DNA of 64,000 nucleotides, from assembly GCA_942490685.1 (NCBI GenBank), contig CALNXW010000016.1:2341703-2405702 (forward strand), in the 5' to 3' direction. Each line of letters opens with the position of its first letter. Within the stretch, counting starts at the first letter, position 1. The translations under genes were made by a program, and so were the position numbers. Below are positions 13,535 to 44,739 of this stretch, one piece after another. The notes below the pieces were generated by a model, which worked only from the letters and a program-made list of their open reading frames with translations, did no database searches and was not told where the DNA came from. The stretch is from an uncultured bacterium (GTDB taxonomy: Bacteria; Bacteroidota; Ignavibacteria; Kapaibacteriales; UBA2268).

Positions 13535-13607
<73 letters not shown>

Positions 13608-26562: not shown

Positions 26563-26644
26563 AATATCTTTTTTTAGTATATGAGTATAAATAATTAAAT
26601 AATAACCGAATACATTCCAAATAGTTACATATAACCCCAAAAAA

Positions 26645-26673
26645 ACACCCAGGTTGAAAAAACTGTGGGTGTT
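26645..26673 (-). terminator. Terminator hairpin repeated behind each T9SS paralog unit
   Basis: ACACCCAGG-ttgaaaaaa-CTGTGGGTGT. On the minus strand it is followed by a T-run. It recurs at ~31668-31696 and ~33167-33195 as part of the repeated unit. Confidence 0.5.
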
Positions 26674-26703
26674 TAATTAGGGAATTGTTCTCATTTTAGA
26701 TTT

Positions 26704-28062
26704 CTACTCTACAGCGAAACCAAACATCCTTTTCTCCACTTCATTATCTACAACTAAATAATAGATACCTGTTTTCAGGCTGATTGTATTTATTCTTTTA
26801 GTTGCAAATCCGGAGTTTGGATCATATTCAATATCGTCATCAAGATTCTTTATAAGCTGCCCCATGTAGTTATATATTGTAAAATCTACACTAGCTCTAG
26901 TGCTGGGCTTTAAATAAAACTTGACATTAGTGTATGTTTTTGCTGGGTTAGGAAATACTTTTATTGGTACTATTGAGGGGAAAGCCTCAACTGAATTTCC
27001 ATTTGGAATATATTCAACCACTTTGGAATAAGTTTGCCCATTTTCTTCAAAAATTCCGGAAAGCCAAGTGCTGTTTCTTCCGGAGTTTTGGACTCTGTAC
27101 ACGACTTTGAACCCTTCATGCTCCAGATGTTCGTAGTTATAACTATCTATCCGCTTGTATTTTACGATACCTTTTTTAAGAGTATAAATTGAAACATAAA
27201 TATTACCTTCACCATCAAAAGTTGCATCAGGTTCTAACAAATATTTGCCGTCAGAAATTACAACATCAGGGTGATATTCTATTAAGCTGGTTTTAGATAA
27301 ATCTATTACTTCAAAATCGTGTGTGATCAAATTAAATATCGCTATTCTTTGTTGAGGTCCAATAAACAGTAATGTATCTCCGCTAATGCGAAGTCTTCTT
27401 GTTGCTAACCATGTCAAATTATTAGCGTCGATGATAGAATCAACATCAATCGTCCATCTTTCCTGATCGGAGTAATAGTATATCTTCTGTTCTGCATGAC
27501 CCAAGTAGAGAAATCCTTGATCATAAGGAAGAAAATTAGCCGGTCCGAGATTCCATTTATGGATGTGTACAGAATCTAAAGGTAAAGAGTCTAATTTCAA
27601 AGTTCGATCATCAAAAGTATAAATATTTCCCCAGAATCCGCTGAACCAAAACTTATGATTATTATAACCGGTTGTATTTTTAAAATCAAATTTTGAAGAT
27701 ATTTGTAATGCATTATAAACAATAGTAGTATCATCATTAAAAAAGCAAAAGTAAGAACTGTCTTTTGTACCAAAAGAAGTCATCTTGATATTTTCGCCGA
27801 AATGAGTAAACTCTGGGATAATATACTCAATCTCATATTTTTTTTCAGATGTTTCGAAAGTATCAATAATTTCCCAAGTTCTGTTTTGCTCGTCTACTAC
27901 AGCAAAATCATTTCGTCCAAAGAAATACAACTGTCCTGAAGAATCTATTAAAGCTTTCCAAAACTCAAATCCATCTCTAAACTCATAAGGTTCATCGTAA
28001 TGTTGTGAGAATATGGAAGTGTATCCTAAGAACATAAAAAACAAAAGTAGTATAGATTTCAT
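26704..28062 (-). CDS. T9SS-CTD secreted protein, family copy 2
   Basis: Differs from copy 1 at about five residues. The ORF-track extension to 28110 runs into the IS30 end. Confidence 0.7.
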   Translation of the reverse strand: MKSILLLFFMFLGYTSIFSQHYDEPYEFRDGFEFWKALIDSSGQLYFFGRNDFAVVDEQNRTWEIIDTFETSEKKYEIEYIIPEFTHFGENIKMTSFGTKDSSYFCFFNDDTTIVYNALQISSKFDFKNTTGYNNHKFWFSGFWGNIYTFDDRTLKLDSLPLDSVHIHKWNLGPANFLPYDQGFLYLGHAEQKIYYYSDQERWTIDVDSIIDANNLTWLATRRLRISGDTLLFIGPQQRIAIFNLITHDFEVIDLSKTSLIEYHPDVVISDGKYLLEPDATFDGEGNIYVSIYTLKKGIVKYKRIDSYNYEHLEHEGFKVVYRVQNSGRNSTWLSGIFEENGQTYSKVVEYIPNGNSVEAFPSIVPIKVFPNPAKTYTNVKFYLKPSTRASVDFTIYNYMGQLIKNLDDDIEYDPNSGFATKRINTISLKTGIYYLVVDNEVEKRMFGFAVE

Positions 28063-28083
28063 AATATCTTTTTTTAGTATATG

Positions 28084-29222
28084 GCCACATTCAACCAATA
28101 AATGCAACAAAGTTTAAAATAATAAATTTTTCTTTCTTGTAATAGGATTATCGAAATCAAGTCTCTTTCTTGGTCTGTTATTAAGTATGTTCTGCACGAA
28201 GCTCACAAATTTATCTTCCAGTAAAGTAAAGTCCGTTTTCTTAGGTATATATTGTCTTATAAGCCCGTTTAGATTCTCATTTGCACCTCTCTGCCACGGC
28301 TTATACGGATGAGCAAAGTAGAAATCAACTCCTAATATTTCTGCAATTAAAGAGTGATAAGCGAACTCTTTTCCATTATCTGCTGTAATAGTATGAATAT
28401 TGTCTCTTTCGTCGTAAAGTAGCTCTATAGTAGCATTTACGATATCTTCGGCACTTCTGCTTTTTGTTTTTTTCATCCACAGCATCCCGGAAGCCCGGTC
28501 GTTTATAGTTACTATTGCCCCCTTATGATTCTTGCCTATAATTGTGTCTATTTCTAAATCTCCAAATCGTTTTCTTTCCTCCACTATAGTCGGTCTTTCG
28601 TCAATATCACGTCGATTTACTATTGTCCCCCGACTTTTGTATTGGCTGCCACGTTTTTGATACCTCCTGCCTTTACGGCGAAGATGCAAGTGCAAATCCT
28701 GACCGTTTGCTTTGCATTTCCAAATATGCTGATATATACTTTCGTGAGAAACGCAAGGGATATCGTTCTTTCGGCAGAATCCAACTATTTGCTCAGGACT
28801 GTAATCCAGCTCCAGATAATACCTAATTGTCGCTTTTACAGAATCTGTCATATACGTACGCTTGTGTTTCCATTTCTGCCGAGTTTCGTAGTACTTTTGT
28901 GCATTTTTGCTGCTATAAATACCTGTACGCTCGTTAGTATTACGTTTTATTTCCCTGATGACAACTGATTTGTCTTTGCCAATCGTCTCAGCTATGTAAG
29001 TAATTGATTTTCCTTTTGCTAACAAGCATTCTATTGTATATCTTTGTTCTCTGGTGATATGTGCCATTGCAACCCTCTTGTTTGGACGCTGGAAGGAAAA
29101 AATGCGCATATTTTCCATCAAAACACGGAAGGCAGATTTTTTCTGCTTTCCTGTTTTGAAAAATTTATGCTTTTCTTCTATAACGTCTCATCTAAGTGTT
29201 GCATTTATTACTTGAATTTAGA
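28084..29222 (-). mobile_element. IS30-family insertion sequence (~1.14 kb)
   Basis: Single transposase ORF. Imperfect terminal inverted repeats: ATTCAACCAATAAATGCAAC on the left, ATTCAAGTAATAAATGCAAC on the right (reverse complement). A candidate 3-bp target-site duplication ATG sits at 28081-28083 and 29223-29225. The uninterrupted target sequence is visible in the copy-1 leader (tatATGagtataaat). Boundaries are accurate to about 5 bp. Confidence 0.7.
28114..29121 (-). CDS. IS30-family DDE transposase
   Basis: N-terminal HTH (MAHITREQRYTIECLLAKGKSITYIAETIG) followed by an rve/DDE catalytic domain (LEIDTIIGKNHKGAIVTINDRASG...). Confidence 0.85.
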   Translation of the reverse strand: MMENMRIFSFQRPNKRVAMAHITREQRYTIECLLAKGKSITYIAETIGKDKSVVIREIKRNTNERTGIYSSKNAQKYYETRQKWKHKRTYMTDSVKATIRYYLELDYSPEQIVGFCRKNDIPCVSHESIYQHIWKCKANGQDLHLHLRRKGRRYQKRGSQYKSRGTIVNRRDIDERPTIVEERKRFGDLEIDTIIGKNHKGAIVTINDRASGMLWMKKTKSRSAEDIVNATIELLYDERDNIHTITADNGKEFAYHSLIAEILGVDFYFAHPYKPWQRGANENLNGLIRQYIPKKTDFTLLEDKFVSFVQNILNNRPRKRLDFDNPITRKKNLLF

Positions 29223-29316
29223 ATGAGTATAAATAATTAAATAATAACCGAATACTGTTCTTTCCCTCTGAAAATTGACCCGTTTTTGTCAGCAAAATTG
29301 ACCCACCCCAATATAA

Positions 29317-30069
29317 TTATTTATTTATAATATCCTTCACTCTAAAACTTTTTCCATTGATAAAAAACGGATAGCAGTGATGCAAAAGTCTGTCTAAAAT
29401 GGCAGATGCGACCACGTCATCCTGGAATATATCACCCCATTTGTCAAAGGACTTGTTCGATGTAATAATCGTAGATTTTCGTTCGTATCTTGCAGCAATC
29501 AGCCTGAAGAAAAATGATGCAGTTTTCTTTGTAAGCTCAAGATAGCCGAGTTCGTCGATTATAAGCAGATCAAGCCGGTCTAATGTGTTTAGCAGTCTTT
29601 GCAGTTGACCAATCATTTCTGCTTCGGCAAAAGCTTTCATTAGCTGCTCTGTTGTGTAAAATGCAACTCTTTTTCTCTGCTGACAGGCTTTAATCCCAAT
29701 GGATATGGCAAGATGCGTTTTGCCAACACCCGGAGGTTCGAGAAAGATAATATTTTTTGCCTCATCCATAAATTGCAGTTGCGTGAGTTCTCTCAAAAGC
29801 TTTTCGTCAATCTTTGGTTGAAAAGAAAAATCAAAGCTCTCAAAATGCTTTATTTGAGGGAATCCGGCTGTTTGTACTCTTCTGTTGATAGAGCGGTCAA
29901 GCTTCGAGATTACTTCTTCCTGCATGATTTTAAAGAGAAATTCTGCATAACTAAGCTTGGCTTTAGCTGCATTTTCCACCTCTAACTTATAATTCTGTCT
30001 AATCCAAGGCAGAGTCAGCGTTTTAAGATATTCATCTAATTTGTCGTGGGTCTGCATTTTAACCTCCAA
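29317..30069 (-). CDS. istB: IS21-family helper ATPase IstB
   Basis: Walker A PPGVGKTHLAISIG, a DnaA/DnaC-like AAA+ fold. It overlaps the istA stop. Confidence 0.9.
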   Translation of the reverse strand: MEVKMQTHDKLDEYLKTLTLPWIRQNYKLEVENAAKAKLSYAEFLFKIMQEEVISKLDRSINRRVQTAGFPQIKHFESFDFSFQPKIDEKLLRELTQLQFMDEAKNIIFLEPPGVGKTHLAISIGIKACQQRKRVAFYTTEQLMKAFAEAEMIGQLQRLLNTLDRLDLLIIDELGYLELTKKTASFFFRLIAARYERKSTIITSNKSFDKWGDIFQDDVVASAILDRLLHHCYPFFINGKSFRVKDIINK

Positions 30070-31528
30070 AATGATTGTTGTAATAATCCAGATTTCGCAC
30101 GATATTGACTTCTTCTATTGTTTTGTTTATCATGGTTTCTATGCGTACAGGCTCTACTGGAGCATCTTTAGCATTATTCTCTACATAAGCTCTTACAAAC
30201 TTTGAGTTAAAGATGTTATAATCACGGCATTTAAGAAAAGCTGCTTCCATATCTTTATGCTCAAAATACATAGCTGTATCCATGATTCTTGTAAGGTGAT
30301 ATGCAGGATTTATTCTCTTTTGTGCATATAGTTTGTCCAAAAACCAGGCAAAATCAGGGAATTTCTTGCTAAAACTCATAGACAAACGTTTCCAACTTCC
30401 TTTTTCTATGCTGTGATTCTTATAGTGAGAGTCCAGCATGATAATTTTACCTTTCTCTAAACTGAGCTTGTGACGGGCTATGAGCTTGCTTTTTGTTGAA
30501 TATACTTCGATATAGCTGCCTTTAGAGACTTTGACCCAAACCTGCTTGCCAACAAATAAATATGGCACGCTGTATCGGCTTCCCATAAATGAAATCAGGC
30601 AGTCTGCACTTACTTTGCGAACTTCTTCTTTGACGCTTACATAGCGTGATTCCGGCAGAATTGATAAGTATTCTTTCTCTTTTGCAAAAAGCTCGATAGG
30701 TTTTGCTTTTGTTGTCGAATGCACTCTGGAATTGACTTTATCCTGAAAATCCTTTAGTTTTTGGCAGAAATCTTCGAAGGATTCATATTCATTGCCTTTG
30801 ATAAAATGATCTTCGAGGTATGCAAAAGGGCGTTCTACCTTGCCTTTTGACCAAGGATGTGCAGGTAGAGAGCGAGTTGGCTTAAAGCCGTAATGTCCGC
30901 AAAATGCCAAATATCGCTTATTCCATTGGAAGTTATCCTTTGAGGCATTTGTTACAAAGCTTGTTGCGTTGTCTGTTTGAATTTGCTCACAAACGCCACC
31001 GGATTCGATGATGGAATTTTCCAACGCTTCCAATATACTCGCCATAGTATCACTGAGAGCCGCTTCCAACACACGATGCCGACTGAAACCATGGATATAC
31101 TGATATACATATAATTTGACTAACTTACCGCCAATCATTACTGTATAAGGACTCCAGTCATATTGTGCCTGAAAGCCGGGAGACGTTTCGTAAGGCTTGA
31201 ATGATGGCTTTTCTTGCGCTGACATCTTCTCACAATACCTGTAAAAAGCACTTTGAGAGCCGGTATAGCCTTTTGCTCGAATATCAGCTAATACTCTGCT
31301 TTTACGAAGTCTTTTCTTATTTAAACTCTCAGAAATGTATTCCTCAAACGGCATCAGAAAAGGATTTGCACTGCACTCGCGCGTATATTGTGGAGCAGAA
31401 TCCTTCTTTAGAGCTGATTTAACCGTATTGCGACTAACATTAAGCAGCTTAGCAATCTTGCGTGTACCCAAATCAGGGTTATGATTTTTCAAATTTCGGA
31501 TAGTTACCCAATCTTCCACTGTTATCAC
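30059..31528 (-). CDS. istA: IS21-family transposase IstA
   Basis: 489 aa. N-terminal HTH plus a DDE integrase core, with the typical istA-istB overlap. Confidence 0.9.
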   Translation of the reverse strand: MITVEDWVTIRNLKNHNPDLGTRKIAKLLNVSRNTVKSALKKDSAPQYTRECSANPFLMPFEEYISESLNKKRLRKSRVLADIRAKGYTGSQSAFYRYCEKMSAQEKPSFKPYETSPGFQAQYDWSPYTVMIGGKLVKLYVYQYIHGFSRHRVLEAALSDTMASILEALENSIIESGGVCEQIQTDNATSFVTNASKDNFQWNKRYLAFCGHYGFKPTRSLPAHPWSKGKVERPFAYLEDHFIKGNEYESFEDFCQKLKDFQDKVNSRVHSTTKAKPIELFAKEKEYLSILPESRYVSVKEEVRKVSADCLISFMGSRYSVPYLFVGKQVWVKVSKGSYIEVYSTKSKLIARHKLSLEKGKIIMLDSHYKNHSIEKGSWKRLSMSFSKKFPDFAWFLDKLYAQKRINPAYHLTRIMDTAMYFEHKDMEAAFLKCRDYNIFNSKFVRAYVENNAKDAPVEPVRIETMINKTIEEVNIVRNLDYYNNHFGG

Positions 31529-31730
31529 CTATTTCCCTCCTGCATTTGAAGTCAATCTTATGCAGGATTAGTTAGCAAATGGTGGGTCAATTTTCAGCGG
31601 GAAAAGTGGGTCAATTTTCGGAGGGAATTGAGAAATACATTCCAAATAGTTACATATAACACCCAAAAAAAACACCCAGGTTGAAAAAACTGTGGGTGTT
31701 TAATTAGGGAATTGTTCTCAATTTAGATTC

Positions 31731-33089
31731 CTATTCTACAGCGAAACCAAACATCCTTTTCTCCAATTCATTATCTACAACTAAATAATAGATACCTGTT
31801 TTAAGGCTGATTGTATTTATTCTTTTAGTTGCAAATCCGGAGTTTGGATCATATTCAATATCGTCATCAAGATTCTTTATTAGCTGCCCCATGTAGTTAT
31901 ATATTTTAAAATCTACACTAGCTCTAGTGCTGGGCTTTAAATAAAACTTGACATTAGTGTATGTTTTTGCTGGGTTAGGATATACTTTTATTGGTACTAT
32001 TGAGGGGAAAGCCTCAACTGAGTTTCCATTTGGAATATATTCAACCACTTTGGAATAAGTTTTTCCGTTTTCTTCAAAAATGCCAGAAAGCCAAGTGCTG
32101 TTTCTTCCGGAGTTTTGGACTCTATACACAACTTTGAACCCTTCATGCTCCAGATGTTCGTAGTTATAACTATCTATCCGCTTGTATTTTACGATACCTT
32201 TTTTGAGAGTAAAAATTGAAACATAAATATTACCTTCACCATCAAAAGTTGCATCAGGTTCTAACAAATATTTGCCGTCAGAAATTACTACATCAGGGTG
32301 ATATTCTAATAAGCTGGTTTTAGATAAATCTATTACTTCAAAATCGTGTGTGATCAAATTAAATATCGCTATTCTTTGTTGAGGTCCAATAAACAGTAAT
32401 GTATCTCCGCTAATGCGAAGTCTTCTTGTTGCTAACCATGTCAAATTATTAGTGTCGATTATAGAATCAACATCAATCGTCCATCTTTCCTGATCGGAGT
32501 AATAATAGATCTTCTGTTCTGCATGACCCAAGTAGAGAAATCCTTGATCATAAGGAAGAAAATTAGCCGGTCCGAGATTCCATTTATGGATGTGTACAGA
32601 ATCTAAAGGTAAAGAGTCTAATTTGAAAGTTCGATCATCAAAAGTATAAATATTTCCCCAGAATCCGCTGAACCAAAACTTGTGATTATTATAACCGGTT
32701 GTATTTTTATATTTGAATTTCGATGACAATTGATATTTATTTATCACAATAGTAGTATCATCATTAAAAAAGCAAAAGTAAGAACTGTCTTTTGTACCAA
32801 AAGAAGTCATCTTGATATTTTCGCCGAAATGAGTAAACTCTGGGATAATATACTCAATCTCATGTTTTTTTTCAGATGTTTCAAAAGTATCAATAATTTC
32901 CCATGTTCTGTTTTGCTCGTCTACTACAGCAAAATCATTTCGTCCAAAGAAATACAACTGTCCTGAAGAATCTATTAAAGCTTTCCAAAACTCAAATCCA
33001 TCTCTAAACTCATAAGGTTCATCGTAATGTTGTGAGAATATGGAAGTGTATCCTAAGAACATAAAAAACAAAAGTAGTATAGATTTCAT
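31731..33089 (-). CDS. T9SS-CTD secreted protein, family copy 3
   Basis: Near-identical to copies 1 and 2, with a variable patch (TTIVINKYQLSSKFKYKNTTG versus TTIVYNALQISSKFDFKNTTG). The ORF-track start at 33176 is over-extended. Confidence 0.7.
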   Translation of the reverse strand: MKSILLLFFMFLGYTSIFSQHYDEPYEFRDGFEFWKALIDSSGQLYFFGRNDFAVVDEQNRTWEIIDTFETSEKKHEIEYIIPEFTHFGENIKMTSFGTKDSSYFCFFNDDTTIVINKYQLSSKFKYKNTTGYNNHKFWFSGFWGNIYTFDDRTFKLDSLPLDSVHIHKWNLGPANFLPYDQGFLYLGHAEQKIYYYSDQERWTIDVDSIIDTNNLTWLATRRLRISGDTLLFIGPQQRIAIFNLITHDFEVIDLSKTSLLEYHPDVVISDGKYLLEPDATFDGEGNIYVSIFTLKKGIVKYKRIDSYNYEHLEHEGFKVVYRVQNSGRNSTWLSGIFEENGKTYSKVVEYIPNGNSVEAFPSIVPIKVYPNPAKTYTNVKFYLKPSTRASVDFKIYNYMGQLIKNLDDDIEYDPNSGFATKRINTISLKTGIYYLVVDNELEKRMFGFAVE

Positions 33090-33231
33090 AATATCTTTTT
33101 TAATATATGAGTATAAATAATTAAATAATAACCGGACACATTCCAAATAGTTACATATAACACCCAAAAAAAACACCCAGGTTGAAAAAACTGTGGGTGT
33201 TTAATTAGGGAATTGTTCTCAATTTAGATTT

Positions 33232-34629
33232 CTACTCTACAGCGAAACCAAACATTTTTGACTCAACGCCATTATTGATATGTAGATAATAAATTCCTGT
33301 GCGATACTTTGATGACTGTATTGTTTTGGTTGCATAAAATCTGCTGTTGTCATATTCCACTTCTTTATCCAATTTGTCCACCTGATTGCCCATATAGTCA
33401 TAAATCGTAAATTCAAGATCATCTATCAAATCAGGGCGAATGTAAAACTGCACTTTAGTTTGAGTTTTTGTCGGATTTGGATATGTGCGCAAAGTTATCA
33501 TTGACGGAACCGATTCTACTGAATTACCTTCAGGGAAGTAAGGAATTGCAACCCAGTTTGTATCAGAGTTCGGATTTTTATAAGGGCCGTATAACCAAAC
33601 ATAGTCAAAAGGTGTAGAAATAACTGATCTAGACTCGAATAAAAGCTCTGATTTTAGTTCTTTGCATATCCTGTCTTTATCCACCCTGAAAACAGCCGGT
33701 GCACTTTTCCCAAAAGAATAGTATGATAAATATATATCATGATTACTACCTATATGAATATATCCTGGAATCTTTTTATCTTTTGCCAAATCTTCTTCAA
33801 GATGTTTTCCTACTATTCCTTTTGTAAGGTCTATAAACTCTGTTTCATATGTCTTCAAATCAAATATTACCACATGCACCCTTGTGTCTAAAATATAAAG
33901 CTTATCATCTCTCAATTCTACATTATACAAATCGCTGTATTTCGGAGACGCTACTTTAAAAATTGAATCTGCATTGATAGTATAGCTTGTATCTTTGGAA
34001 AAGAAATGTAATTCCTTCCTGTTCTGAGTAAAATACAGCAATCCATTTTGGTATGAATTAATTGCTGAACCAAAAGTATGATATGTCTTAACTATTGTTC
34101 CGTCTATTGGAATAGAATCAATTTCAAGAGTATTCTCATCAAAGCTTAGTAAAAATTTGATATTCCCAAAAAACCAATATTTGCCATCTGAATACTCAGC
34201 ATCAATTATATATTTGTAATGTGGATGCAATTCCCCCTCTCTATATAACCAGGACAAAGTAGTATCCTGATTTTTAAACAGCAAATATGGTTTAAGACTA
34301 TCCTGTCCGTAATATCCAATTATCTTTGGTGCAACAATTGCCATATGAGATTTATTACTATAACCAATTGGATTGTATAAATACGACTCGCAAGTTGTAT
34401 CTTTTAAAGCAAAATGAGTATGTCTTACTAAAGTGTCAGACAAATCCTTATAGCTATGTAGTGGAGTGTGACCGGCGATGTAGCATATATTAGAAGAATC
34501 CATGTAAAATCTTTCGAAAGGATTTCTCTTGAGTTTAGTAAAATATGGCTTACCATAATAATCACTTAGCAAAATAGAAGGAAAACTTATCGTAAATAAA
34601 ATAAAGAGTATTATTGTTCTCATCTGCAC
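33232..34629 (-). CDS. T9SS-CTD secreted protein, diverged family copy 4
   Basis: Same architecture and a homologous C-terminal sorting domain (TYPNPTKTQTKVQFYI...TGIYYLHINNGVESKMFGFAVE), but a diverged body. Confidence 0.65.
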   Translation of the reverse strand: MQMRTIILFILFTISFPSILLSDYYGKPYFTKLKRNPFERFYMDSSNICYIAGHTPLHSYKDLSDTLVRHTHFALKDTTCESYLYNPIGYSNKSHMAIVAPKIIGYYGQDSLKPYLLFKNQDTTLSWLYREGELHPHYKYIIDAEYSDGKYWFFGNIKFLLSFDENTLEIDSIPIDGTIVKTYHTFGSAINSYQNGLLYFTQNRKELHFFSKDTSYTINADSIFKVASPKYSDLYNVELRDDKLYILDTRVHVVIFDLKTYETEFIDLTKGIVGKHLEEDLAKDKKIPGYIHIGSNHDIYLSYYSFGKSAPAVFRVDKDRICKELKSELLFESRSVISTPFDYVWLYGPYKNPNSDTNWVAIPYFPEGNSVESVPSMITLRTYPNPTKTQTKVQFYIRPDLIDDLEFTIYDYMGNQVDKLDKEVEYDNSRFYATKTIQSSKYRTGIYYLHINNGVESKMFGFAVE

Positions 34630-34653: not shown

Positions 34654-34680
34654 GAGCCGACTCTTAGTTAAAGTCGGCTC
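34654..34680 (-). terminator. Hairpin terminator downstream of the Cys-rich gene fragment
   Basis: GAGCCGACT-cttagttaa-AGTCGGCTC, a 9-bp perfect stem. It lies between the reconstructed stop at 34693 and the copy-4 start. Confidence 0.45.
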
Positions 34681-34692
34681 GGAAATATTTAT

Positions 34693-34900
34693 TTATTCGC
34701 AAATAACATTACATTCAACTTCTACAGGCACAGGAGGGATTAAATCCATAGAATTTACTATAACTGTTCTAGGACAACCTCCTTCAATTCCTTTAGTAAC
34801 CCCCTGATACTCGGTAGCTAGCTGCATATGTCCAAATTCGTTCGGTTTGTAACATAGTTTATATTCATATTCACAAATACCAGTTTTTTCAGTACATTGG
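34693..34900 (-). pseudogene. C-terminal fragment of a Cys-rich secreted protein gene split by IS21 copy B
   Basis: Reading the minus strand in frame across the IS gives ...KVSQ|CTEKTGICEYEYKLCYKPNEFGHMQLATEYQGVTKGIEGGCPRTVIVNSMDLIPPVPVEVECNVICE*. The frame continues exactly from ORF 37257..37724 once the IS and one copy of the ATTGG duplication are removed. Confidence 0.7.
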
Positions 34901-35005
34901 TCTCAATTCCCTCCGAAAATTGACCCACTTTTCCCGCTGAAAATTGACCCACCATTTGCTAACTAATCCTGCATAAGATTGACTTCAAATGCAGGAGGGA
35001 AATAG

Positions 35006-36476
35006 GTGATAACAGTGGAAGATTGGGTAACTATCCGAAATTTGAAAAATCATAACCCTGATTTGGGTACACGCAAGATTGCTAAGCTGCTTAATGTTAG
35101 TCGCAATACGGTTAAATCAGCTCTAAAGAAGGATTCTGCTCCACAATATACGCGCGAGTGCAGTGCAAATCCTTTTCTGATGCCGTTTGAGGAATACATT
35201 TCTGAGAGTTTAAATAAGAAAAGACTTCGTAAAAGCAGAGTATTAGCTGATATTCGAGCAAAAGGCTATACCGGCTCTCAAAGTGCTTTTTACAGGTATT
35301 GTGAGAAGATGTCAGCGCAAGAAAAGCCATCATTCAAGCCTTACGAAACGTCTCCCGGCTTTCAGGCACAATATGACTGGAGTCCTTATACAGTAATGAT
35401 TGGCGGTAAGTTAGTCAAATTATATGTATATCAGTATATCCATGGTTTCAGTCGGCATCGTGTGTTGGAAGCGGCTCTCAGTGATACTATGGCGAGTATA
35501 TTGGAAGCGTTGGAAAATTCCATCATCGAATCCGGTGGCGTTTGTGAGCAAATTCAAACAGACAACGCAACAAGCTTTGTAACAAATGCCTCAAAGGATA
35601 ACTTCCAATGGAATAAGCGTTATCTGGCATTTTGCGGACATTACGGCTTTAAGCCAACTCGCTCTCTATTCTGCACATCCTTGGTCAAAAGGCAAGGTAG
35701 AACGCCCTTTTGCATACCTCGAAGATCATTTTATCAAAGGCAATGAATATGAATCCTTCGAAGATTTCTGCCAAAAACTAAAGGATTTTCAGGATAAAGT
35801 CAATTCCAGAGTGCATTCGACAACAAAAGCAAAACCTATCGAGCTTTTTGCAAAAGAGAAAGAATACCTGTCAATTCTTCCGGAATCACGCTATGTAAGC
35901 GTCAAAGAGGAAGTTCGCAAAGTAAGTGCAGACTGCCTGATTTCATTCATGGGATGCCGCTACAGCGTGCCATATTTGTTTGTTGGCAAGCAGGTTTGGG
36001 TCAAGGTCTCTAAAGGCAGCTATATCGAAGTATATTCAACAAAAAGCAAGCTCATAGCCCGTCACAAGCTCAGTTTAGAGAAAGGTAAAATTATCATGCT
36101 GGACTCTCACTATAAGAATCACAGCATAGAAAAAGGAAGTTGGAAACGTCTGGCTATGAGTTTTAGCAAGAAATTCCCTGATTTTGCCTGGTTTTTGGAC
36201 AAACTATATGCACAAAAGAGAATAAATCCTGCATATCACCTTACAAGAATCATGGATACAGCTATGTATTTTGAGCATAAAGATATGGAAGCAGCTTTTC
36301 TTAAATGCCGTGATTATAACATCTTTAACTCAAAGTTTGTAAGAGCTTATGTAGAGAATAATGCTAAAGATGCTCCGGTAGAGCCTGTACGCATAGAAAC
36401 CATGATAAACAAACCAATAGAAGAAGTCAATATCGTGCGAAATCTGGATTATTACAACAATCATTTTGGAGGCTAA
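35006..36476 (+). pseudogene. istA: IstA transposase, copy B, disrupted by a +1 frameshift
   Basis: The two ORFs 35006..35746 and 35586..36476 together equal copy A IstA. Copy A reads ctctacctgcaca where copy B reads ctctattctgcaca (one extra base), breaking the frame at ...GFKPTRSL|PAHPWSKG. Confidence 0.8.
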
Positions 36477-37218
36477 AATGCAGGCATACGACAAATTAGA
36501 TGAATATCTCAAAACGCTGACTCTGCCTTGGATTAGACAGAATTATAAGTTAGAGGTGGAAAATGCAGCTAAAGCCAAGCTTAGTTATGCAGAATTTCTC
36601 TTTAAAATCATGCAGGAAGAAGTAATCTCGAAGCTTGACCGCTCTATCAACAGAAGAGTACAAACAGCCGGATTCCCTCAAATAAAGCATTTTGAGAGCT
36701 TTGATTTTTCTTTTCAACCAAAGATTGACGAAAAGCTTTTGAGAGAACTCACGCAACTGCAATTTATGGATGAGGCAAAAAATATTATCTTTCTCAATCC
36801 TCCGGGTGTTGGCAAAACGCATCTTGCCATATCCATTGGGATTAAAGCCTGTCAGCAGAGAAAAAGAGTTGCATTTTACACAACAGAGCAGCTAATGAAA
36901 GCTTTTGCCGAAGCAGAAATGATTGGTCAACTGCAAAGACTGCTAAACACATTAGACCGGCTTGATCTGCTTATAATCGACGAACTCGGCTATCTTGAGC
37001 TTACAAAGAAAACTGCATCATTTTTCTTCAGGCTGATTGCTGCAAGATACGAACGAAAATCTACGATTATTACATCGAACAAGTCCTTTGATAAATGGGG
37101 TGATATATTCCAGGATGACGTGGTCGCATCTGCCATTTTAGACAGACTTTTGCATCACTGCTATCCGTTTTTTATCAATGGAAAAAGTTTTAGAGTGAAG
37201 GATATTATAAATAAATAA
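36466..37218 (+). CDS. istB: IS21-family helper ATPase IstB (copy B)
   Basis: 250 aa, with about three substitutions relative to copy A. Confidence 0.9.
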   Translation: MEAKMQAYDKLDEYLKTLTLPWIRQNYKLEVENAAKAKLSYAEFLFKIMQEEVISKLDRSINRRVQTAGFPQIKHFESFDFSFQPKIDEKLLRELTQLQFMDEAKNIIFLNPPGVGKTHLAISIGIKACQQRKRVAFYTTEQLMKAFAEAEMIGQLQRLLNTLDRLDLLIIDELGYLELTKKTASFFFRLIAARYERKSTIITSNKSFDKWGDIFQDDVVASAILDRLLHHCYPFFINGKSFRVKDIINK

Positions 37219-37279
37219 TTATATTGGGGTGGGTCAATTTTGCTGACAAAAACGGGTCAATTTTCAGAGGGAAAGAACA

Positions 37280-37724
37280 ATTGGCTTACTTTATAAGTAA
37301 GTCTTGGACCTCCTGTATGATTATCAATATATCTATATGGATCTGTCCAACAGCTTGAGCTTGTAACAACAACTATATTATCATCTCCCATATACGGCTC
37401 ATCACACGGATATAGATCCATTCCAGGAAAAGACTCCAATATAGGAGCAACTAATCTTGCAACTTCTGACATTATTATATCATAATCATGCAAAAATACT
37501 TCTTTTGCGAAGTTTAAATCACACTCAAGAGAGTTTGTTGCAAAGTACCAGTTTTTAATGTAAATATATGGTAGAGATAGTGGAGTTCCTTCTCCTCTAT
37601 CAACCCAACAGTATTCTATCCAAAGTTCACAGCAATCTGTTAAATCTCTTATTTTCATAAAGCCACCATAATTTGGATAGCCTGCCGGACAATCCTGTGC
37701 ATCAGAATTACTTGAAAAAAACAC
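37280..37724 (-). pseudogene. N-terminal part of the Cys-rich secreted protein gene split by IS21 copy B
   Basis: The ORF-track protein (155 aa, many Cys: DCPAGY, CCELWIEYCW, CDEPYMGDD, SSCW) ends with 7 aa (LFFPSEN) encoded by the IS terminus. The upstream frame has a signal-peptide-like VVALLFLVFFSSNSDA, but the only ATG upstream (MKYYFKPSL) is in another frame. So the start is GTG, or there is an additional frameshift. Confidence 0.6.
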
Positions 37725-38122
37725 TAAAAATAATAGTGCTACAACGAAGGTTTGAAATAATATTTCATAATTTATACCTCTAAGTATAATGTAACAAATC
37801 TATTCAATACTTTATTGAATAGTAGCAATCGGGCTAAGCAAGCTGCCACTTGCTTAGCCTAGTTTTTTACAATTAACATATTTTGACTATGTTAATTATC
37901 AACGTCAGTTAACTGAACCGATTTAAATATACAGATTGATTTTATTATTTCCAAGATATTATTTCTTTTTTCTTGCTATTTTTTTTTTTGATTTCATTAT
38001 TTATCTATATCATACCTACCAATTTCACATGTTTTTTATACTCATTGAATATTATATATTTAAATTTGCATATCTCACAAAACTGTTTTATATCATATAT
38101 ATTAATATGACAATTCGAGAAT

Positions 38123-38845
38123 GTGATGCACACAAAACTTATCACTAATGCAGAAGTATCTGCCCACCAGGCAGACTATCTAAAACGACTAAAGCTCAGC
38201 AGCTTCTTTGATATAATGCAGGATGGCGCGTACAAAAATGCAGATGATTATGGCTATGGCTTCTATGATATGGAAAACAAAGGTCTTATTTGGGTGATCT
38301 CCAGAATAAAAGTAGTGTGGGAAAATGATGCTTATTTTGAAGACAAACTCAAATTCTCTACTTGGGCAAAAGGGCTTGAAAGATTATTTTTTAGGCGTGA
38401 CTATCTGCTGGAATCAGAATCTAATGTAGTTGCCAAAGCAACAGCACTTTGGCTAATCGTAGAAGAAAAAACAAGACGACCACAAAGGCCAAGCGTACTT
38501 ACTAATTACCATACAAAATTTATTGATGAAAGCATTCTGGATGAAATTCCAAGGAAAATTGACATTTTAGAAGACACCGATTTTGTTTTTAGCAAAACAG
38601 TAAGGCATTGTGACATAGATCTAAATGGTCACATGAATAATGAGAGATATGTGGAGCTTGCATTAGACACTCTCCCCAAAGAATACTTTGAAAGAAAACT
38701 AAAAACATTCGAAATCGAATTTAAACAAGAGTCTAAGTTTGGTGATGAATTAATCATGACCAGAAAAATTTTAGACAATTCAGTTTATGTTAGAGCGTGT
38801 AATGACATAGGGGAATGCGTATTTGCTTCAATATTTGAGTATTGA
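38123..38845 (+). CDS. Acyl-[acyl-carrier-protein] thioesterase (FatA/B-like, PF01643 type)
   Basis: 240 aa with a double hotdog fold. Matching segments include LIWVISRIKVVWENDAYFEDKLKFSTWA and the catalytic region CDIDLNGHMNNERYVE. Confidence 0.75.
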   Translation: MMHTKLITNAEVSAHQADYLKRLKLSSFFDIMQDGAYKNADDYGYGFYDMENKGLIWVISRIKVVWENDAYFEDKLKFSTWAKGLERLFFRRDYLLESESNVVAKATALWLIVEEKTRRPQRPSVLTNYHTKFIDESILDEIPRKIDILEDTDFVFSKTVRHCDIDLNGHMNNERYVELALDTLPKEYFERKLKTFEIEFKQESKFGDELIMTRKILDNSVYVRACNDIGECVFASIFEY

Positions 38846-39043: not shown

Positions 39044-40003
39044 ATGAAAAGAATAGGTATTTTAACTAGCGGGGGCGATGCTCCTGGCATGAATGCTCAC
39101 GTAAGAGCAGTAGTTCGCACAGGACTATCCAGAGGTGTAGAAGTCTATGGAATTATTGGCGGTTATTCCGGCATGATTGAAGGTAACTTCGAAAAGCTTG
39201 GAAGAAAAGAAACTGCTAATATTATAGCTCGCGGCGGTACTATATTAAAAACAAGCCGCTCAAAAGAGTTTATGAATGCCGGCGGACGTGCTGCTGCTGC
39301 AGACAGCATCAGAGAAGCTGGGATTGAAGGTATTGTAGCTTGCGGCGGTAACGGCACTCTTCAGGGAGCTCATGCCCTTTGGGAAGAGCACGGAATTCCT
39401 ATTGTAGGCACTCCCGGCACAATTGACAATGATCTTTACGGCACTTACTACACTATAGGCTACGACACTGCTCTTAATACTGCTGCCGGGGCAATTGACA
39501 GGATTCGCGACACAGCCGATTCGCACGGTAGAGTATTCTTGATTGAAGTTATGGGCCGACATGCAGGATTTATTGCCATGGATGTTGGTATCGCTACAGG
39601 TGCTGAATTTATAGCTGTGCCTGAATCACTTACAAACATGGATACACTATATCAAAGAATATTGAAACAAGGCAAAACGCGCAGAACAATAGTTATAGTT
39701 GGCGAAGGTGATGAAAACGGTGGTGCAAACAAAATGGCTGAAGTGCTTCAGGAAAAATATGATATCAACCCAAAAGTAACTATACTTGGCCATATTCAGC
39801 GTGGTGGCAGCCCTACTGTGAGAGATAGAGTTCTTGCCAGCCATCTGGGCGTGGAAGCAGTACACGCTCTTCTTGATGGAAAAACTGATGTGATGATAGG
39901 TAGAAAATATCACGAAATCCAGTACACCCCACTCAAAGATACCTGGACTAAAAAGAAAGAACTATGGAAATACTTAATTGATCTTTCTGAAATATTGATA
40001 TAA
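39044..40003 (+). CDS. pfkA: ATP-dependent 6-phosphofructokinase
   Basis: 319 aa. IGILTSGGDAPGMNA, IGGDGS-like GGNGTLQGA, and MGR/IVIVGEG motifs. Confidence 0.9.
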   Translation: MKRIGILTSGGDAPGMNAHVRAVVRTGLSRGVEVYGIIGGYSGMIEGNFEKLGRKETANIIARGGTILKTSRSKEFMNAGGRAAAADSIREAGIEGIVACGGNGTLQGAHALWEEHGIPIVGTPGTIDNDLYGTYYTIGYDTALNTAAGAIDRIRDTADSHGRVFLIEVMGRHAGFIAMDVGIATGAEFIAVPESLTNMDTLYQRILKQGKTRRTIVIVGEGDENGGANKMAEVLQEKYDINPKVTILGHIQRGGSPTVRDRVLASHLGVEAVHALLDGKTDVMIGRKYHEIQYTPLKDTWTKKKELWKYLIDLSEILI

Positions 40004-40282: not shown

Positions 40283-41686
40283 TTACTTACCCACAACAAA
40301 CTTCCCGGTATAGGTTTTATCTGAAAATTCAAGTTTAATAAAATATGTACCGGCAGATAAATTAAATTCTGCCAGATTGATATTTATATTAGCACTATTA
40401 GAAATCATAGATTTTGTAATACAAAGATTTCCAGTCAAATCCATAACTTTGAGTGTATAATCACCGATCACAGCATCATCTAACTCTATATTGATCTCAT
40501 CATTTGCAGGATTTGGGTAAATTCGAGTTGGATTTAATTTAGCTTCCTCCACTCCAATTTGGATGTAGTGATATAGTAACACAGTATCATTTGGAGTAAC
40601 ATCATCTGCTAAATACATACCAGCCTGAGCAAATTCACCTCTGCCGTAGCCACATAAAGCATGGGTTTTGTTAGGCATCTCAAACTTTTGAAGAAACGTA
40701 GTATCCCCTACCCTTCCTACGTAAACAGTTTTCGATTCTTCATATACAGCCTGAACAGGATGAGTAGCCTCGAAGTCAAGTACTATCAGTTCCGGAGGTA
40801 AATCTGTCTCTTCATTTTGATATGTAAATCTGTATTCTTCTAATTTATCAAGATTAAACCTTTCAATTTTGCCATTATCCGCATAAGATACTGCGGCTGT
40901 ATTATCATGTACTTCCAAATTTTTTGGAGTCCCGTCTAATTCTATTCTGCCGATCAAACCTAAATACTCATCGCTATATACTTCCAAAATAGCTTTGCCA
41001 TCTTCATTTTCTCCTAAAACGACTAATTTAGATTTATTGAAAGATGCATAAGTAAATTTGTGACTATATTTCACATCTACTATCTTATAAGGCAGCTTTT
41101 TGTTTGCAAGCATTTGATTATCTTTGAGCAGAACTATTTCATCTTGTGCTCCGCTTGTTATGCAAGCAGCAATGCAGTCTTTAGAGACTCTTACAAAATC
41201 AGCCTGAAAATTCATAATTGGACTTACTTCAAGCTCTTTAGTGTCATAGCCTCTACTTATATTACTGACTTTTATGATCTGTGAGTTATTAAGAAAATAC
41301 ATTTCTGCATCCTCGTATTGATCTTGATAGTCAAGTACAAAGAAATCTCCATTAAAAGGATAGCTAAAAGCTCCCATCTCAAAATCGTGGATTTTTTTTA
41401 CACTGCCAAAGAACTGATCAACATCTTCATACTCACCAGGATTAATAATTGGGGCTATGAACTGTTGACTAATCCATGCAGAAGGGTACTCGTCACCTTC
41501 ATCGAACTGTCCATTCCCGTTTTGGTCGATGCCCTCGCATAATATTAACAAGAATTCTCGACTTATTGTCTTAACACAGAAAGGTTTAGACCCAACTTTC
41601 AACTTTGCTCGAAATAAATCTTGCTTAGCCTGTGCATAGAATGAAGAAACAAATAAAAACACTAGTAGTAATACTATTTTTTTCAT
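40283..41686 (-). CDS. Secreted protein with T9SS C-terminal sorting domain
   Basis: Signal peptide, then a C-terminal ~80 aa CTD (RIYPNPANDEINIELD...GTYFIKLEFSDKTYTGKFVV). Confidence 0.65.
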   Translation of the reverse strand: MKKIVLLLVFLFVSSFYAQAKQDLFRAKLKVGSKPFCVKTISREFLLILCEGIDQNGNGQFDEGDEYPSAWISQQFIAPIINPGEYEDVDQFFGSVKKIHDFEMGAFSYPFNGDFFVLDYQDQYEDAEMYFLNNSQIIKVSNISRGYDTKELEVSPIMNFQADFVRVSKDCIAACITSGAQDEIVLLKDNQMLANKKLPYKIVDVKYSHKFTYASFNKSKLVVLGENEDGKAILEVYSDEYLGLIGRIELDGTPKNLEVHDNTAAVSYADNGKIERFNLDKLEEYRFTYQNEETDLPPELIVLDFEATHPVQAVYEESKTVYVGRVGDTTFLQKFEMPNKTHALCGYGRGEFAQAGMYLADDVTPNDTVLLYHYIQIGVEEAKLNPTRIYPNPANDEINIELDDAVIGDYTLKVMDLTGNLCITKSMISNSANININLAEFNLSAGTYFIKLEFSDKTYTGKFVVGK

Positions 41687-41849: not shown

Positions 41850-42926
41850 TTATCCGATTTCCCAGAAATCTTCCCCTTTCATTAATTCTTCCAAATTACC
41901 TTCGCCAAGTTTATCTTTAGCTGCCTGGATTTGCTCAGTTACCAAATCATTGTATGTTGGTTTTTCTAAATCTAAGAATACACCAAACGGACGAGGAACG
42001 TTTTCATGATAAGTCATGTTCGCCAAGATAAATGCAAGCATTGTATCTTTTTCGTTATGAACCATCAAGTCATTAACAGAATGTTTGCCATCTGTCAAAG
42101 AAACAACAGTTGGAGTAAATCCGTCTAATTTGATACCTTTATCTTTGTTAACACCAAAGATCATTGGTTTACCATGCTCAAGCTGAACAGTATTTTCTGC
42201 TCTAGCATCTTTAGCAGCAAAATTATCAAATGCGTGATCATTAAAGATAACACAGTTTGCATATACTTCGCAGAAAGAAACACCTCTGTGAGCATTAGCT
42301 CTTTCAAAAAGCATTTTCAAATCTTTAGGATCTTTATCGATACCGCGAGCAAAGAAAGTAGCTCCTGAGCCTAAAGCTAATGCAGGAGGATTGAACGGGT
42401 GATCAACAACACCAAAAGGAGAAGATTTAGTTTTTTGACCAGGCTGAGAAGTAGGTGAATACTGCCCTTTAGTCAAAGAGTAAATCTCATTGTTGAACAT
42501 AAGAATGTTCAAATCAATATTTCTACGGCACGCATGGATCATGTGGTTACCACCGATACTCATACAGTCACCATCACCAGTAGCAACCCAAACTGACATA
42601 TCAGGACGAGCTGTTTTCAAGCCTGAAGCAATCGCTAAGGCACGACCGTGAATTGAGTGAAAACCGTAAACATCCATATAATAAGGGAAACGGCTGGAAC
42701 AACCGATACCTGAGATAAACGCGATTTTTTCTTTAGGAATACCCAATTCAGGCATTATTTTTTGTACCTGACTTAAGATGGCATAACCACCGCAACCTGC
42801 ACACCAGCGTACATCGATACCTGCTTTGAAATCAGAAGCTTTATAATCTAAAGTTCCAATATGGGGCTTATTTACTATATCATCAACATGTGTAAACATC
42901 TTATTTGCCCTCCTGTAACAATTCAT
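41850..42926 (-). CDS. korB: 2-oxoacid (2-oxoglutarate):ferredoxin oxidoreductase, beta (TPP-binding) subunit
   Basis: WCAGCGGYAIL matches the Cys cluster and TPP-binding region of OFOR beta subunits. It is translationally coupled (overlapping) with the alpha subunit gene. Confidence 0.85.
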   Translation of the reverse strand: MNCYRRANKMFTHVDDIVNKPHIGTLDYKASDFKAGIDVRWCAGCGGYAILSQVQKIMPELGIPKEKIAFISGIGCSSRFPYYMDVYGFHSIHGRALAIASGLKTARPDMSVWVATGDGDCMSIGGNHMIHACRRNIDLNILMFNNEIYSLTKGQYSPTSQPGQKTKSSPFGVVDHPFNPPALALGSGATFFARGIDKDPKDLKMLFERANAHRGVSFCEVYANCVIFNDHAFDNFAAKDARAENTVQLEHGKPMIFGVNKDKGIKLDGFTPTVVSLTDGKHSVNDLMVHNEKDTMLAFILANMTYHENVPRPFGVFLDLEKPTYNDLVTEQIQAAKDKLGEGNLEELMKGEDFWEIG

Positions 42927-44739
42927 TTACTCTATCTTCTATTTCGTGTGCTTTAAGCGGCTTACCAATTACTTTAGTATATTTGATAACGTCTCTCATA
43001 TATTTAGAGCGAATCAAAGTAGCAAGGTGGCCTGTATTTAACTCAGGCAAAAGCACTCTGTCAAATTTAGAAAGTACATCACCCAAGTTTTTAGGGAATG
43101 GATTTAAATAGCGCAAGTGAGCATAAGAAACTTTTTTGCCTTCGGCTCTAAGTTTGTCAAATGCATCTTTGATTGCACCATAAGTACCGCCCCAGCCTAA
43201 GATTAGCAAATCGCCTTCCTGTTCGCCTTCTACATGAAGATCAGGAATAGAATTTGCAATTCTTTCCACTTTTTCAGCTCTGTAATTAATCATTTTTTCG
43301 TGGTTTTTAGGATCATGAGATACTAAACCTGTAATATCTTCTTTTTCCAAACCGCCGATTCTGTGTTCCAAACCTTCAGTTCCCGGAATAGCCCACATGC
43401 GAGCAAGTGTTTCAGGGTCACGTTTGTAAGGAGCAAAAGTTTCTTTATCAGTAGCAAATTCAACTTTGATATCAGGGATTTCATTCATTGAAGGAATTCT
43501 CCAAGGATTAGTACCCTGAGCAATGTAGCCGTCAGTCAAAAGAATTACAGGAGTCATATATTCTACAGCAATTCTAGAAGCTTCTACAGTTACATCAAAG
43601 CAATCAGCAGCACTGCTTGCACAAAGGATAGGCATTGGCGCTTCGCCGTGTCTGCCATACATAGCCATAAGCAAGTCAGACTGCTCAGGTTTAGTTGGAA
43701 GACCAGTAGAAGGGCCGGCTCTTTGCACGTCTACAATAACTAGTGGTAATTCAAGAATTACTGCTAAGCCCATTGCTTCAACTTTCAAAGAAAGACCAGG
43801 GCCACTAGTAGTAGTCACAGCTAAGTTACCACCATAAGCAGCACCAATAGCAGAGCAAATACCTGCGATTTCATCTTCTGCCTGGAATGTTTTCACACCC
43901 ATTTGTTTATATTCAGATAAAAAGTGCAAAATTTCAGTAGCCGGAGTGATAGGGTAAGATCCCAAGAAAAGCGGCAAATTAGCTTTTTTGGAAGCAGCAA
44001 CCATACCAAGAGCTACAGCATTATTACCGGTAATATTGCGATAGAAACCTTTTTGAAGGTTAGCGTTTTTGATTTTATATTGAGTATCAAATTTATCGCT
44101 TGCGTTAGCATAATCAAATCCGGCTTTTAAAACTTTAAGGTTAGAATCCAAAATTTCAGGTTTTTTACCAAATTTGGAGTGCAACCATTTTTCAGTTGGT
44201 TCTAGTGGTCTGTCAAACAACCAGTAAGTAATGCCAAGAGCAAAGATATTTTTTGTTCTTGATACATTTTTGCCAGACATACCGGAATCAGCCAATAGAT
44301 CTTTAACTTCGTTAGTCATGTCTATAGCATAGACTTTGTAGTCACCAAGTGAACCGTTTTCTAAAGGACTTATATCGTATTTAGCTAATTCTAAGTTTTT
44401 CTTACCGAAACCGGCAGTATTGCAGATAATAATTCCGCCTTTTTTCACCTGAGGTAGATTTACTTTGAGCGATGAGGCATTCATAGCTACAAGTACATCT
44501 ATTTCACTACCCGGAGTGTTTACTTTTTTAGAACCAAATTGAATTTGGTAAGCACTCACACCGTATAAAGTACCTTCCGGAGCGCGAATTTCTGATGGAT
44601 AATCAGGAAATGTGTTAACATCATTACCCACAATACCGGACGTATTTGAGAACTGCGTGCCGCTAAGCTGCATGCCATCCCCGGAGTCGCCGGCGAACCT
44701 TATCGTTACCTCATCGAGGTATTCTACTTTTTGTTCCAT
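42901..44739 (-). CDS. korA: 2-oxoacid (2-oxoglutarate):ferredoxin oxidoreductase, alpha subunit
   Basis: 612 aa. Two-subunit OFOR alpha architecture with a PFOR-like domain I and domain III. Confidence 0.85.
   Translation of the reverse strand: MEQKVEYLDEVTIRFAGDSGDGMQLSGTQFSNTSGIVGNDVNTFPDYPSEIRAPEGTLYGVSAYQIQFGSKKVNTPGSEIDVLVAMNASSLKVNLPQVKKGGIIICNTAGFGKKNLELAKYDISPLENGSLGDYKVYAIDMTNEVKDLLADSGMSGKNVSRTKNIFALGITYWLFDRPLEPTEKWLHSKFGKKPEILDSNLKVLKAGFDYANASDKFDTQYKIKNANLQKGFYRNITGNNAVALGMVAASKKANLPLFLGSYPITPATEILHFLSEYKQMGVKTFQAEDEIAGICSAIGAAYGGNLAVTTTSGPGLSLKVEAMGLAVILELPLVIVDVQRAGPSTGLPTKPEQSDLLMAMYGRHGEAPMPILCASSAADCFDVTVEASRIAVEYMTPVILLTDGYIAQGTNPWRIPSMNEIPDIKVEFATDKETFAPYKRDPETLARMWAIPGTEGLEHRIGGLEKEDITGLVSHDPKNHEKMINYRAEKVERIANSIPDLHVEGEQEGDLLILGWGGTYGAIKDAFDKLRAEGKKVSYAHLRYLNPFPKNLGDVLSKFDRVLLPELNTGHLATLIRSKYMRDVIKYTKVIGKPLKAHEIEDRVNELLQEGK

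Follow-up and report, generated by a model that had tools for sequence, protein, structure and literature searches.

The window analysed here, a 64,000-nucleotide (nt) stretch of contig CALNXW010000016.1 (assembly GCA_942490685.1) from an uncultured member of the Kapaibacteriales, carries the remains of a single gene for a cysteine-rich protein that has been killed by two independent lesions, the insertion of an IS21-family insertion sequence (IS) and a 2-nt frameshift. As an event this is routine, an IS insertion and a frameshift having left a pseudogene of the ordinary sort, although the orphan family it belongs to is unusual. The reconstruction corrects the public annotation, in which two "hypothetical proteins" of 155 and 44 aa stand for fragments of one 229-aa gene, and its more interesting by-product is a rare orphan family tightly paired with type IX secretion system (T9SS) cargo in a hypervariable island. 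The overall explanation, which we regard as very probable, joins a gene dead through two lesions, an exported product with disulfide bonds and a partner-binding role, this last step being graded on its own below. Positions are those of the window, and the features are collected in Table 1.

A cysteine-rich gene with two lesions

Deletion of 34901-37284, which removes the inserted element together with one copy of the ATTGG duplication, yields one open minus-strand frame that begins upstream of 37768 and ends with the stop at 34693. An earlier note on this sequence had proposed such an in-frame join, and its coordinates for it are exact. The insertion point falls between a Gln and a Cys codon, at about residue 163/164 of the precursor, and the TGT codon of Cys164 takes its first letter from the final T of the ATTGG duplication and its GT from the other fragment, being present only after the join. 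This cysteine is invariant in seven relatives (P0002, P0003, P0004, P0006, P0008, P0009 and L008:5992-6681), all of which align across the junction with no gap, as illustrated by …YKVSQ/CTEKTGICEY… in the window (the slash marking the junction) and …NKVSK CTSESGFCKY… in P0003. Since these relatives are gapless and share an invariant cysteine that is encoded only after the join, the reconstruction is exact, and 37285-37768 and 34693-34900 are the halves of one gene.

Two checks that the note had suggested came out in favour of this reconstruction: homologues of intact length (227-247 aa) span the junction end to end and gapless, and an uninterrupted gene, in the same gene order, is found in L001 (= L009), a "Candidatus Kapaibacterium sp." metagenome-assembled genome (MAG), and in L008, a "Chlorobiota bacterium" MAG. 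That the fragments are unrelated open reading frames (ORFs), brought into a common frame by coincidence when the IS is taken out, has a negligible probability: one join in three would be in frame a priori, and public annotation keeps the two proteins apart, but single intact relatives cover both fragments (E-values of 2.5e-39 to 2.9e-32, aligned 1-206), the junction is gapless with an invariant cysteine encoded across it, and L001 and L008 hold a syntenic intact gene. Public collections list the fragments as two proteins, and not as a pseudogene, namely P0001 (155 aa; 37257-37724, with a GTG start and seven residues encoded by the IS) and P0005 (44 aa; 34693-34827). An exact 26-mer over the repaired junction had no match in the JGI metagenomes, and Logan contig L012, from a sample with an identical partner gene, begins 42 nt short of the IS junction and is uninformative on occupied or empty alleles.

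The interrupting element is, as the note had recognised, a member of the IS21 family: it has an IstA carrying rve and Mu-transpos_C_2 domains, an IstB, inverted repeats, subterminal sites and a 5-bp duplication. The window holds a second copy (copy A), in the opposite orientation, that is 98.95% identical to the inserted one (copy B), with 24 mismatches and one indel. The first and last bases are identical in the two copies, their flanks differ, and the duplications read GTATT (A) and ATTGG (B); with common termini in differing flanks, the element ends and the duplication size are thus fixed independently of the gene reconstruction. The 489-aa IstA of copy A matches PF00665 rve (5e-8) and PF22483 Mu-transpos_C_2 (5e-16), the fragments of copy B showing the same domains, and PF01695 IstB_IS21 (2e-76) is matched over 233/238 positions by each copy; istB begins before istA has ended. 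The terminal inverted repeats agree at 20/26 outermost positions, and sites resembling GAAAATTGACCCAC occur twice at each element end, the window having eight where chance would give 0.43. The left end of IS21-family elements is usually TG; the element here begins with TC. One T at 35669 that copy A lacks splits the istA of copy B, which is probably defective and non-autonomous, dependent on copy A as the probable source of the transposase acting on it; with its termini intact, copy B could be mobilised in trans by copy A.

A strong terminator-like hairpin (37831-37860, plus strand; 12 pairs followed by AGTTTTTT) stands a short way upstream of where the cysteine-rich gene begins. Until the IS arrived, the nearest ~12 kb upstream of this hairpin contained no plus-strand gene; read-through out of the istAB of copy B would now be halted by it.

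The second lesion is found at the N-terminus. The only ATG, which lies 8 nt further out than the gene end of 37760 given by the note, reads MKYYFKPSL followed by a stop, and the frame of the signal peptide is shifted relative to it. In a DNA alignment of the start region, L001, L008 and L007 all read AGAGG/TGAGG…ATGAAATTATTTCA, and the window reads AGAGG…ATGAAAT[AT]TATTTCA (ATGAAATATTATTTCA), with a 2-nt insertion within 37760-37762, after codon 2. Removal of the two nucleotides gives MKLFQTFVVALLFLVFFSSNSDAQDCP…, colinear with MKLFHTLLAVLLFVAIVSIDAKAEDCP… of P0002, and the intact relatives all begin MKLF… at an ATG behind an AGAGG-type motif. Judged from this alignment, the insertion is a second, independent lesion that disconnects the ATG from the signal peptide. 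The note had left the choice between a GTG start and a second frameshift; the frameshift is borne out by the relatives, and the GTG start is not.

It is improbable that the IS is the sole real lesion, the N-terminal problem being an assembly or sequencing error or a non-ATG start in a gene that functioned until the insertion. The region is AT-rich, no stop interrupts the upstream frame ahead of the GTG, and the 2-nt insertion may in principle be an assembly error, which speaks against a second lesion. The insertion lies outside a homopolymer, however, and is not a typical sequencing error; the sole canonical in-frame start, the GTG at 37724 adopted by public annotation, would leave the signal peptide without any of its hydrophobic core, and the relatives all use the homologous ATG.

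Table 1. Features of the window around the split cysteine-rich gene
Feature	Position	Strand	Details
IS21-family insertion sequence, copy B	34901-37279	+	2379 bp
Right target-site duplication, ATTGG	37280-37284	.	5 bp
Left target-site duplication, ATTGG	34896-34900	.	with 34895-34894 restores the CAA-TGT (Gln-Cys) codons
Terminal inverted repeats of copy B, imperfect	34901-34926 and 37254-37279		
Repeated GAAAATTGACCCAC sites of copy B	34915-34928, 34939-34952, 37229-37242, 37252-37265		
istA, copy B	35006-36476	+	split: 35006-35746 (246 aa) and 35586-36476 (296 aa)
istB, copy B	36466-37218	+	250 aa; IstB_IS21 AAA+ helper, PF01695, E 2e-76
IS21 copy A	29256-31633	-	2378 bp; istA and istB intact; duplication GTATT
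5' fragment of the cysteine-rich gene	37285-37768	-	ATG 37768-37766; signal peptide; first ~139 mature residues
3' fragment of the cysteine-rich gene	34693-34900	-	last 68 residues and stop
Partner gene	33232-34629	-	463 aa from ATG 34623; signal peptide; intact
Hairpin (GAGCCGACT / AGTCGGCTC)	34654-34680	-	between cysteine-rich stop and partner start; read from sequence
2-oxoacid:ferredoxin oxidoreductase	41850-44739		
PFK	39044-40003		
Acyl-ACP thioesterase	38123-38845		
T9SS-sorted proteins	25204-34629		
Malate dehydrogenase (MDH)	24168-25103		
Citrate synthase	22707-23984		

A rare family of putatively exported proteins

The ancestral precursor (MKLFQTFVVALLFLVFFSSNSDA/QDCP…, the slash here and below marking the predicted cleavage site) has 229 aa, about 205 of them in the mature protein, and 13 cysteines, 12 of which are conserved in nearly all relatives. 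The motifs quoted in the earlier note (DCPAGY, CCELWIEYCW and others) are all present in it; the note's figure of about 20 cysteines was too high, and its length of about 215 aa applies to the GTG-start reading only, not to the ancestral precursor or its mature form.

To identify relatives, we performed an exhaustive phmmer search against 1.84 billion representative proteins, which matched P0002 (227 aa, E 2.5e-39, aligned 1-206 of 206), P0003 (191 aa, with its N-terminus missing), P0004 (239 aa) and P0006 (247 aa). P0008 and P0009 came from a profile search, and an eighth member, L008:5992-6681, from a genome scan; a word-indexed protein search with the reconstructed protein returned the truncated self-ORF only. 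The family amounts to about eight members among the 1.84 billion representatives, all from Kapabacteria-type MAGs, and falls into two subfamilies, ~40% and ~24% identical to the protein of the window, both of which occur in one MAG (L008 and L010).

No family member had a match in Pfam or NCBIfam, searches of PADLOC and PHROGs returned nothing meaningful, and a degenerate family search of the JGI metagenomes detected no relatives. Sequence-profile search of the PDB gave no significant match, with a best E-value of 0.2; the CblD sequences matched at that value were rejected as chance. An AlphaFold2 (AF2) model built from seven sequences, mostly beta with two helices, reached a predicted local distance difference test (pLDDT) score of 79.9 and a predicted template modelling (pTM) score of 0.78 in the best of five models, the other four scoring 49-60; Foldseek comparison of the best model with the PDB gave TM values below 0.25, and with BFVD nothing. 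The family is very rare, undescribed and fast-evolving, with no sequence or fold match in Pfam, NCBIfam or the PDB.

Following the usual rules for signal peptides, the repaired N-terminus can be read as MK, the hydrophobic stretch LFQTFVVALLFLVFF (mean Kyte-Doolittle 2.6) and SSNSDA/Q, with small residues at -1 and -3 of the predicted cleavage site; relatives show AKA/E, SEA/Q and similar sites. The lipobox L-[AS]-[GA]-C occurs in no member, the first cysteine lying 2-3 residues past the predicted cleavage and after D/E (…DAQDC…, …AKAEDC…), and the T9SS sorting domain Por_Secre_tail/TIGR04183 (Pfam, NCBIfam) is absent from 7/7 members tested. Cysteine counts are 13 in subfamily 1, 12 in subfamily 2, where the second C of the CC motif is replaced by A, and 10 in P0009. 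The last of these is without both mature C98 and C154, a joint loss of the kind expected for a disulfide-bonded pair. We infer from these features that the product would have left the cytoplasm through Sec, lost its signal peptide to signal peptidase I and acquired about six disulfides outside the cytoplasm. The note's suggestion of a signal-peptide-like region in a disulfide-rich secreted protein of unknown function agrees with the signal-like N-terminus, the conserved cysteine scaffold and the lack of any family match.

A divergent pair in a variable island

Both L001 and L008 present the gene order 2-oxoacid:ferredoxin oxidoreductase, phosphofructokinase (PFK), acyl-ACP thioesterase, intact cysteine-rich gene (227/229 aa) and T9SS-sorted proteins, and L001, the longer locus, runs on into malate dehydrogenase and citrate synthase. 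The window follows the same order (Table 1), its cysteine-rich gene being the pseudogene.

Within this conserved frame, the cysteine-rich gene and its downstream neighbour diverge far faster than the genes around them, the cysteine-rich family by a factor of roughly ten. Between the close genomes L001 and L008, PFK is 99.7% and the thioesterase 95.8% identical, against 49% for the cysteine-rich protein and a nucleotide identity of 41-65% for the partner. Comparison of the window with L001 gives 95% for MDH, 94% each for citrate synthase and PFK, 89% for the oxidoreductase and 80% for the thioesterase, against 38% for the cysteine-rich protein and 43% and 64% for the partners. The same holds in subfamily 2, where L003 and L005 share 86% identity in DHBP synthase, 34% in the cysteine-rich protein and 45% in the partner. 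Synonymous sites are saturated at protein identities of 38-49%. Nucleotide identity in a sliding comparison of L001 with L008 is 92-100% from PFK across the thioesterase and the intergenic region to a point ~150-200 nt into the cysteine-rich gene, whose near-identical start covers the signal peptide and the DCPEGY…CCELWAEYC block. Past a breakpoint at L001:8086-8285, identity falls sharply, to 41-65%, and does not recover in the partner gene; this breakpoint, inside the cysteine-rich gene, looks like a site of recombination at the edge of a hypervariable cassette.

In all recovered contexts, six of them independent (the window, L001, L002, L003/L004, L005, and partial L007 and L008), the cysteine-rich gene is followed on the same strand, after a spacer of 37-186 nt, by a gene for a T9SS-sorted protein of 448-506 aa. 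The partner in the window consists of a signal peptide, a beta-rich N-terminal region of about 380 aa in which no known domain was matched, and a C-terminal sorting domain of T9SS type A; PF18962 (Por_Secre_tail) matches at 1.8e-7 to 3.4e-9, and TIGR04183 above its cut-off, in the window proteins and in the partners from L001, L002, L003 and L005. Homology among partners extends beyond the sorting domain, over 390 aa between L001a and L005 and over 246 aa between L002 and the window paralogues, and a word-indexed search with the partner N-terminal domain retrieved only itself. The two subfamilies occupy different neighbourhoods (PFK/thioesterase, or DHBP synthase or FBPase), and the pairing is kept in both. 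Invariant residues of the partner are mainly aromatic and accompanied by repeated DS motifs, a composition that suggests a beta-repeat binding scaffold and not an enzyme.

Stable hairpins stand between the two genes in 5/7 loci (window 34654-34680, L001:8685-8763, L003:8712-8883, L007:778-848 and L008:6682-6750), their sequence not being conserved among loci; a terminator scan did not call the hairpin in the window. This intergenic hairpin may serve as a terminator, an attenuator or an mRNA-stability element and so determine how strongly the two genes are expressed relative to each other.

Several further features mark the surroundings. The window carries four T9SS-sorted paralogues in tandem (25204-34629, minus strand) with a period of ~1500 bp; those at 25204-26640, 26704-28110 and 31731-33176 share 94-98% mutual identity, and the one at 33232-34629 is ~29% identical to them. 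L001 has three paralogues, the other type being the duplicated one (98% identical), and this difference in the duplicates indicates that different paralogues were amplified in each lineage. An IS30-family element (28084-29222, ~1139 bp) encodes a 335-aa HTH_38 and rve transposase (28114-29121), with an overlap of ~3 bp at its ends. It lies 33 bp from IS21 copy A, both in one ~140-bp intergenic unit of the array of which empty versions are found at 26540-26720 and 33070-33250, and the island of the window has received three IS insertions in ~9 kb. Between the PFK and oxidoreductase genes, 40283-41686 (minus strand) encodes a 467-aa secreted protein whose C-terminus (…RIYPNPANDEINIEL…) resembles a T9SS sorting signal by eye; at the equivalent position L001 encodes a 514-aa protein with no Pfam match. 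The sole Rfam match in the window at the gathering threshold is a tRNA gene at 13535-13607 (minus strand).

Possible roles of the pair and comparison with known systems

Gene order and co-divergence lead us to propose, tentatively, that the cysteine-rich protein binds the N-terminal domain of the adjacent T9SS cargo. Under this proposal, the ancestral product would be exported by Sec, cut by signal peptidase I and folded with about six disulfides in the extracytoplasmic space, where it would pair with the N-terminal domain of the downstream T9SS-sorted protein. The pair would constitute a fast-diversifying extracytoplasmic or cell-surface unit, of a type shaped by pressure from phages, predators or competitors. 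The present genome has lost the cysteine-rich half, with the partner gene and its tandem paralogues left intact.

Several points weigh against this proposal. Binding, localisation and disulfides are predictions from sequence and gene order, and the signal peptide was assigned by rules. The AF2 model of the cysteine-rich protein draws on seven sequences, with one of five models near a pLDDT of 80, and that of the partner, at a pLDDT of 43.6, is unusable. The N-terminal region of the partner revealed no catalytic, peptidase or binding signature. One cysteine-rich gene stands beside three or four partner paralogues, so that the relation is not one-to-one, and with a hairpin between the genes the pair may not be co-transcribed.

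A wider extension of the binding proposal, which we consider rather doubtful, is a Kapabacteria-specific two-component extracytoplasmic module made up of a new disulfide-rich fold and a new T9SS cargo domain, with a cognate interaction under strong diversifying selection. Examples would be a system of self/non-self recognition, a phage-receptor system or a T9SS effector with its periplasmic immunity factor, and the repeated IS hits would in that case be a sign that loss or variation of the module is selected for.

Among the alternatives, a dedicated periplasmic inhibitor, immunity or holding factor that keeps a harmful T9SS cargo inactive in transit, by analogy with the potempins, would account for several observations but is on balance unlikely. 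The gene order is the same as that of the potempins (PMC9890683), the ORF of a small secreted protein lying immediately upstream of T9SS cargo; a protein that has a signal peptide but lacks the T9SS sorting domain would be expected to remain in the periplasm, through which the cargo passes; and the two proteins diverge together, as would suit a cognate inhibitor and its target. The partner, however, has no enzyme signature, and the cysteine-rich protein no similarity to potempins.

We judge it quite unlikely that the cysteine-rich protein had a stand-alone role, for instance as a disulfide-stabilised, bacteriocin-like toxin or an adhesin, and that it adjoins the T9SS cargo merely as part of a common variable island. 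The hairpins seen in 5/7 loci suggest separate transcripts, and the island is a rearrangement hot spot with tandem duplications and three IS insertions, as such a role would allow; but adjacency is kept in subfamilies only ~24% identical and in different neighbourhoods, which is hard to explain without a functional link, and no toxin or bacteriocin family was matched. Should the pair favoured here prove to be a cognate binding system, it would represent a new T9SS accessory module in a poorly studied, uncultured lineage, and a tractable case of co-diversification.

Comparison with known systems places the mobile element and the module differently. The element agrees with the IS21 family in having two consecutive genes, istA with an N-terminal helix-turn-helix, rve and Mu-transposase C-terminal domains and then istB, as well as in its length of ~2.4 kb, imperfect terminal inverted repeats, subterminal repeats at both ends and 5-bp duplication; it differs in that copy B carries a frameshifted istA.

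For the module, the nearest parallel in gene order is that of potempins and KLIKK peptidases. Potempins are outer-membrane lipoproteins of 98-132 residues that inhibit peptidases and are encoded in Tannerella forsythia immediately upstream of the T9SS-secreted KLIKK peptidases (PMC9890683). The likeness lies in gene order only, a small exported protein directly upstream of T9SS-sorted cargo in a T9SS-using lineage. The cysteine-rich protein, in contrast, has ~205 aa in its mature form, no lipobox, 12-13 conserved cysteines and no similarity to any solved sequence or fold, and its partner is without the peptidase signature of the KLIKK proteins; neither the sequence or fold similarity nor the peptidase partner of a potempin-like system was found.

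The second parallel is with polymorphic, hypervariable loci that lie between conserved core genes, such as toxin/immunity cassettes and variable surface-antigen islands. Pfam, NCBIfam and PADLOC yielded no match to a toxin, immunity or defence family, and nothing that would identify a toxin/immunity pair was seen. Like those loci, the island passes from ~97% to ~50% identity at a breakpoint inside its first gene, conserves the N-terminal ~60 residues with the rest and the downstream gene variable, and undergoes lineage-specific tandem duplications. It differs in that, instead of swapping to unrelated C-terminal domains, the same fold diversifies on a cysteine scaffold that is conserved as a whole.

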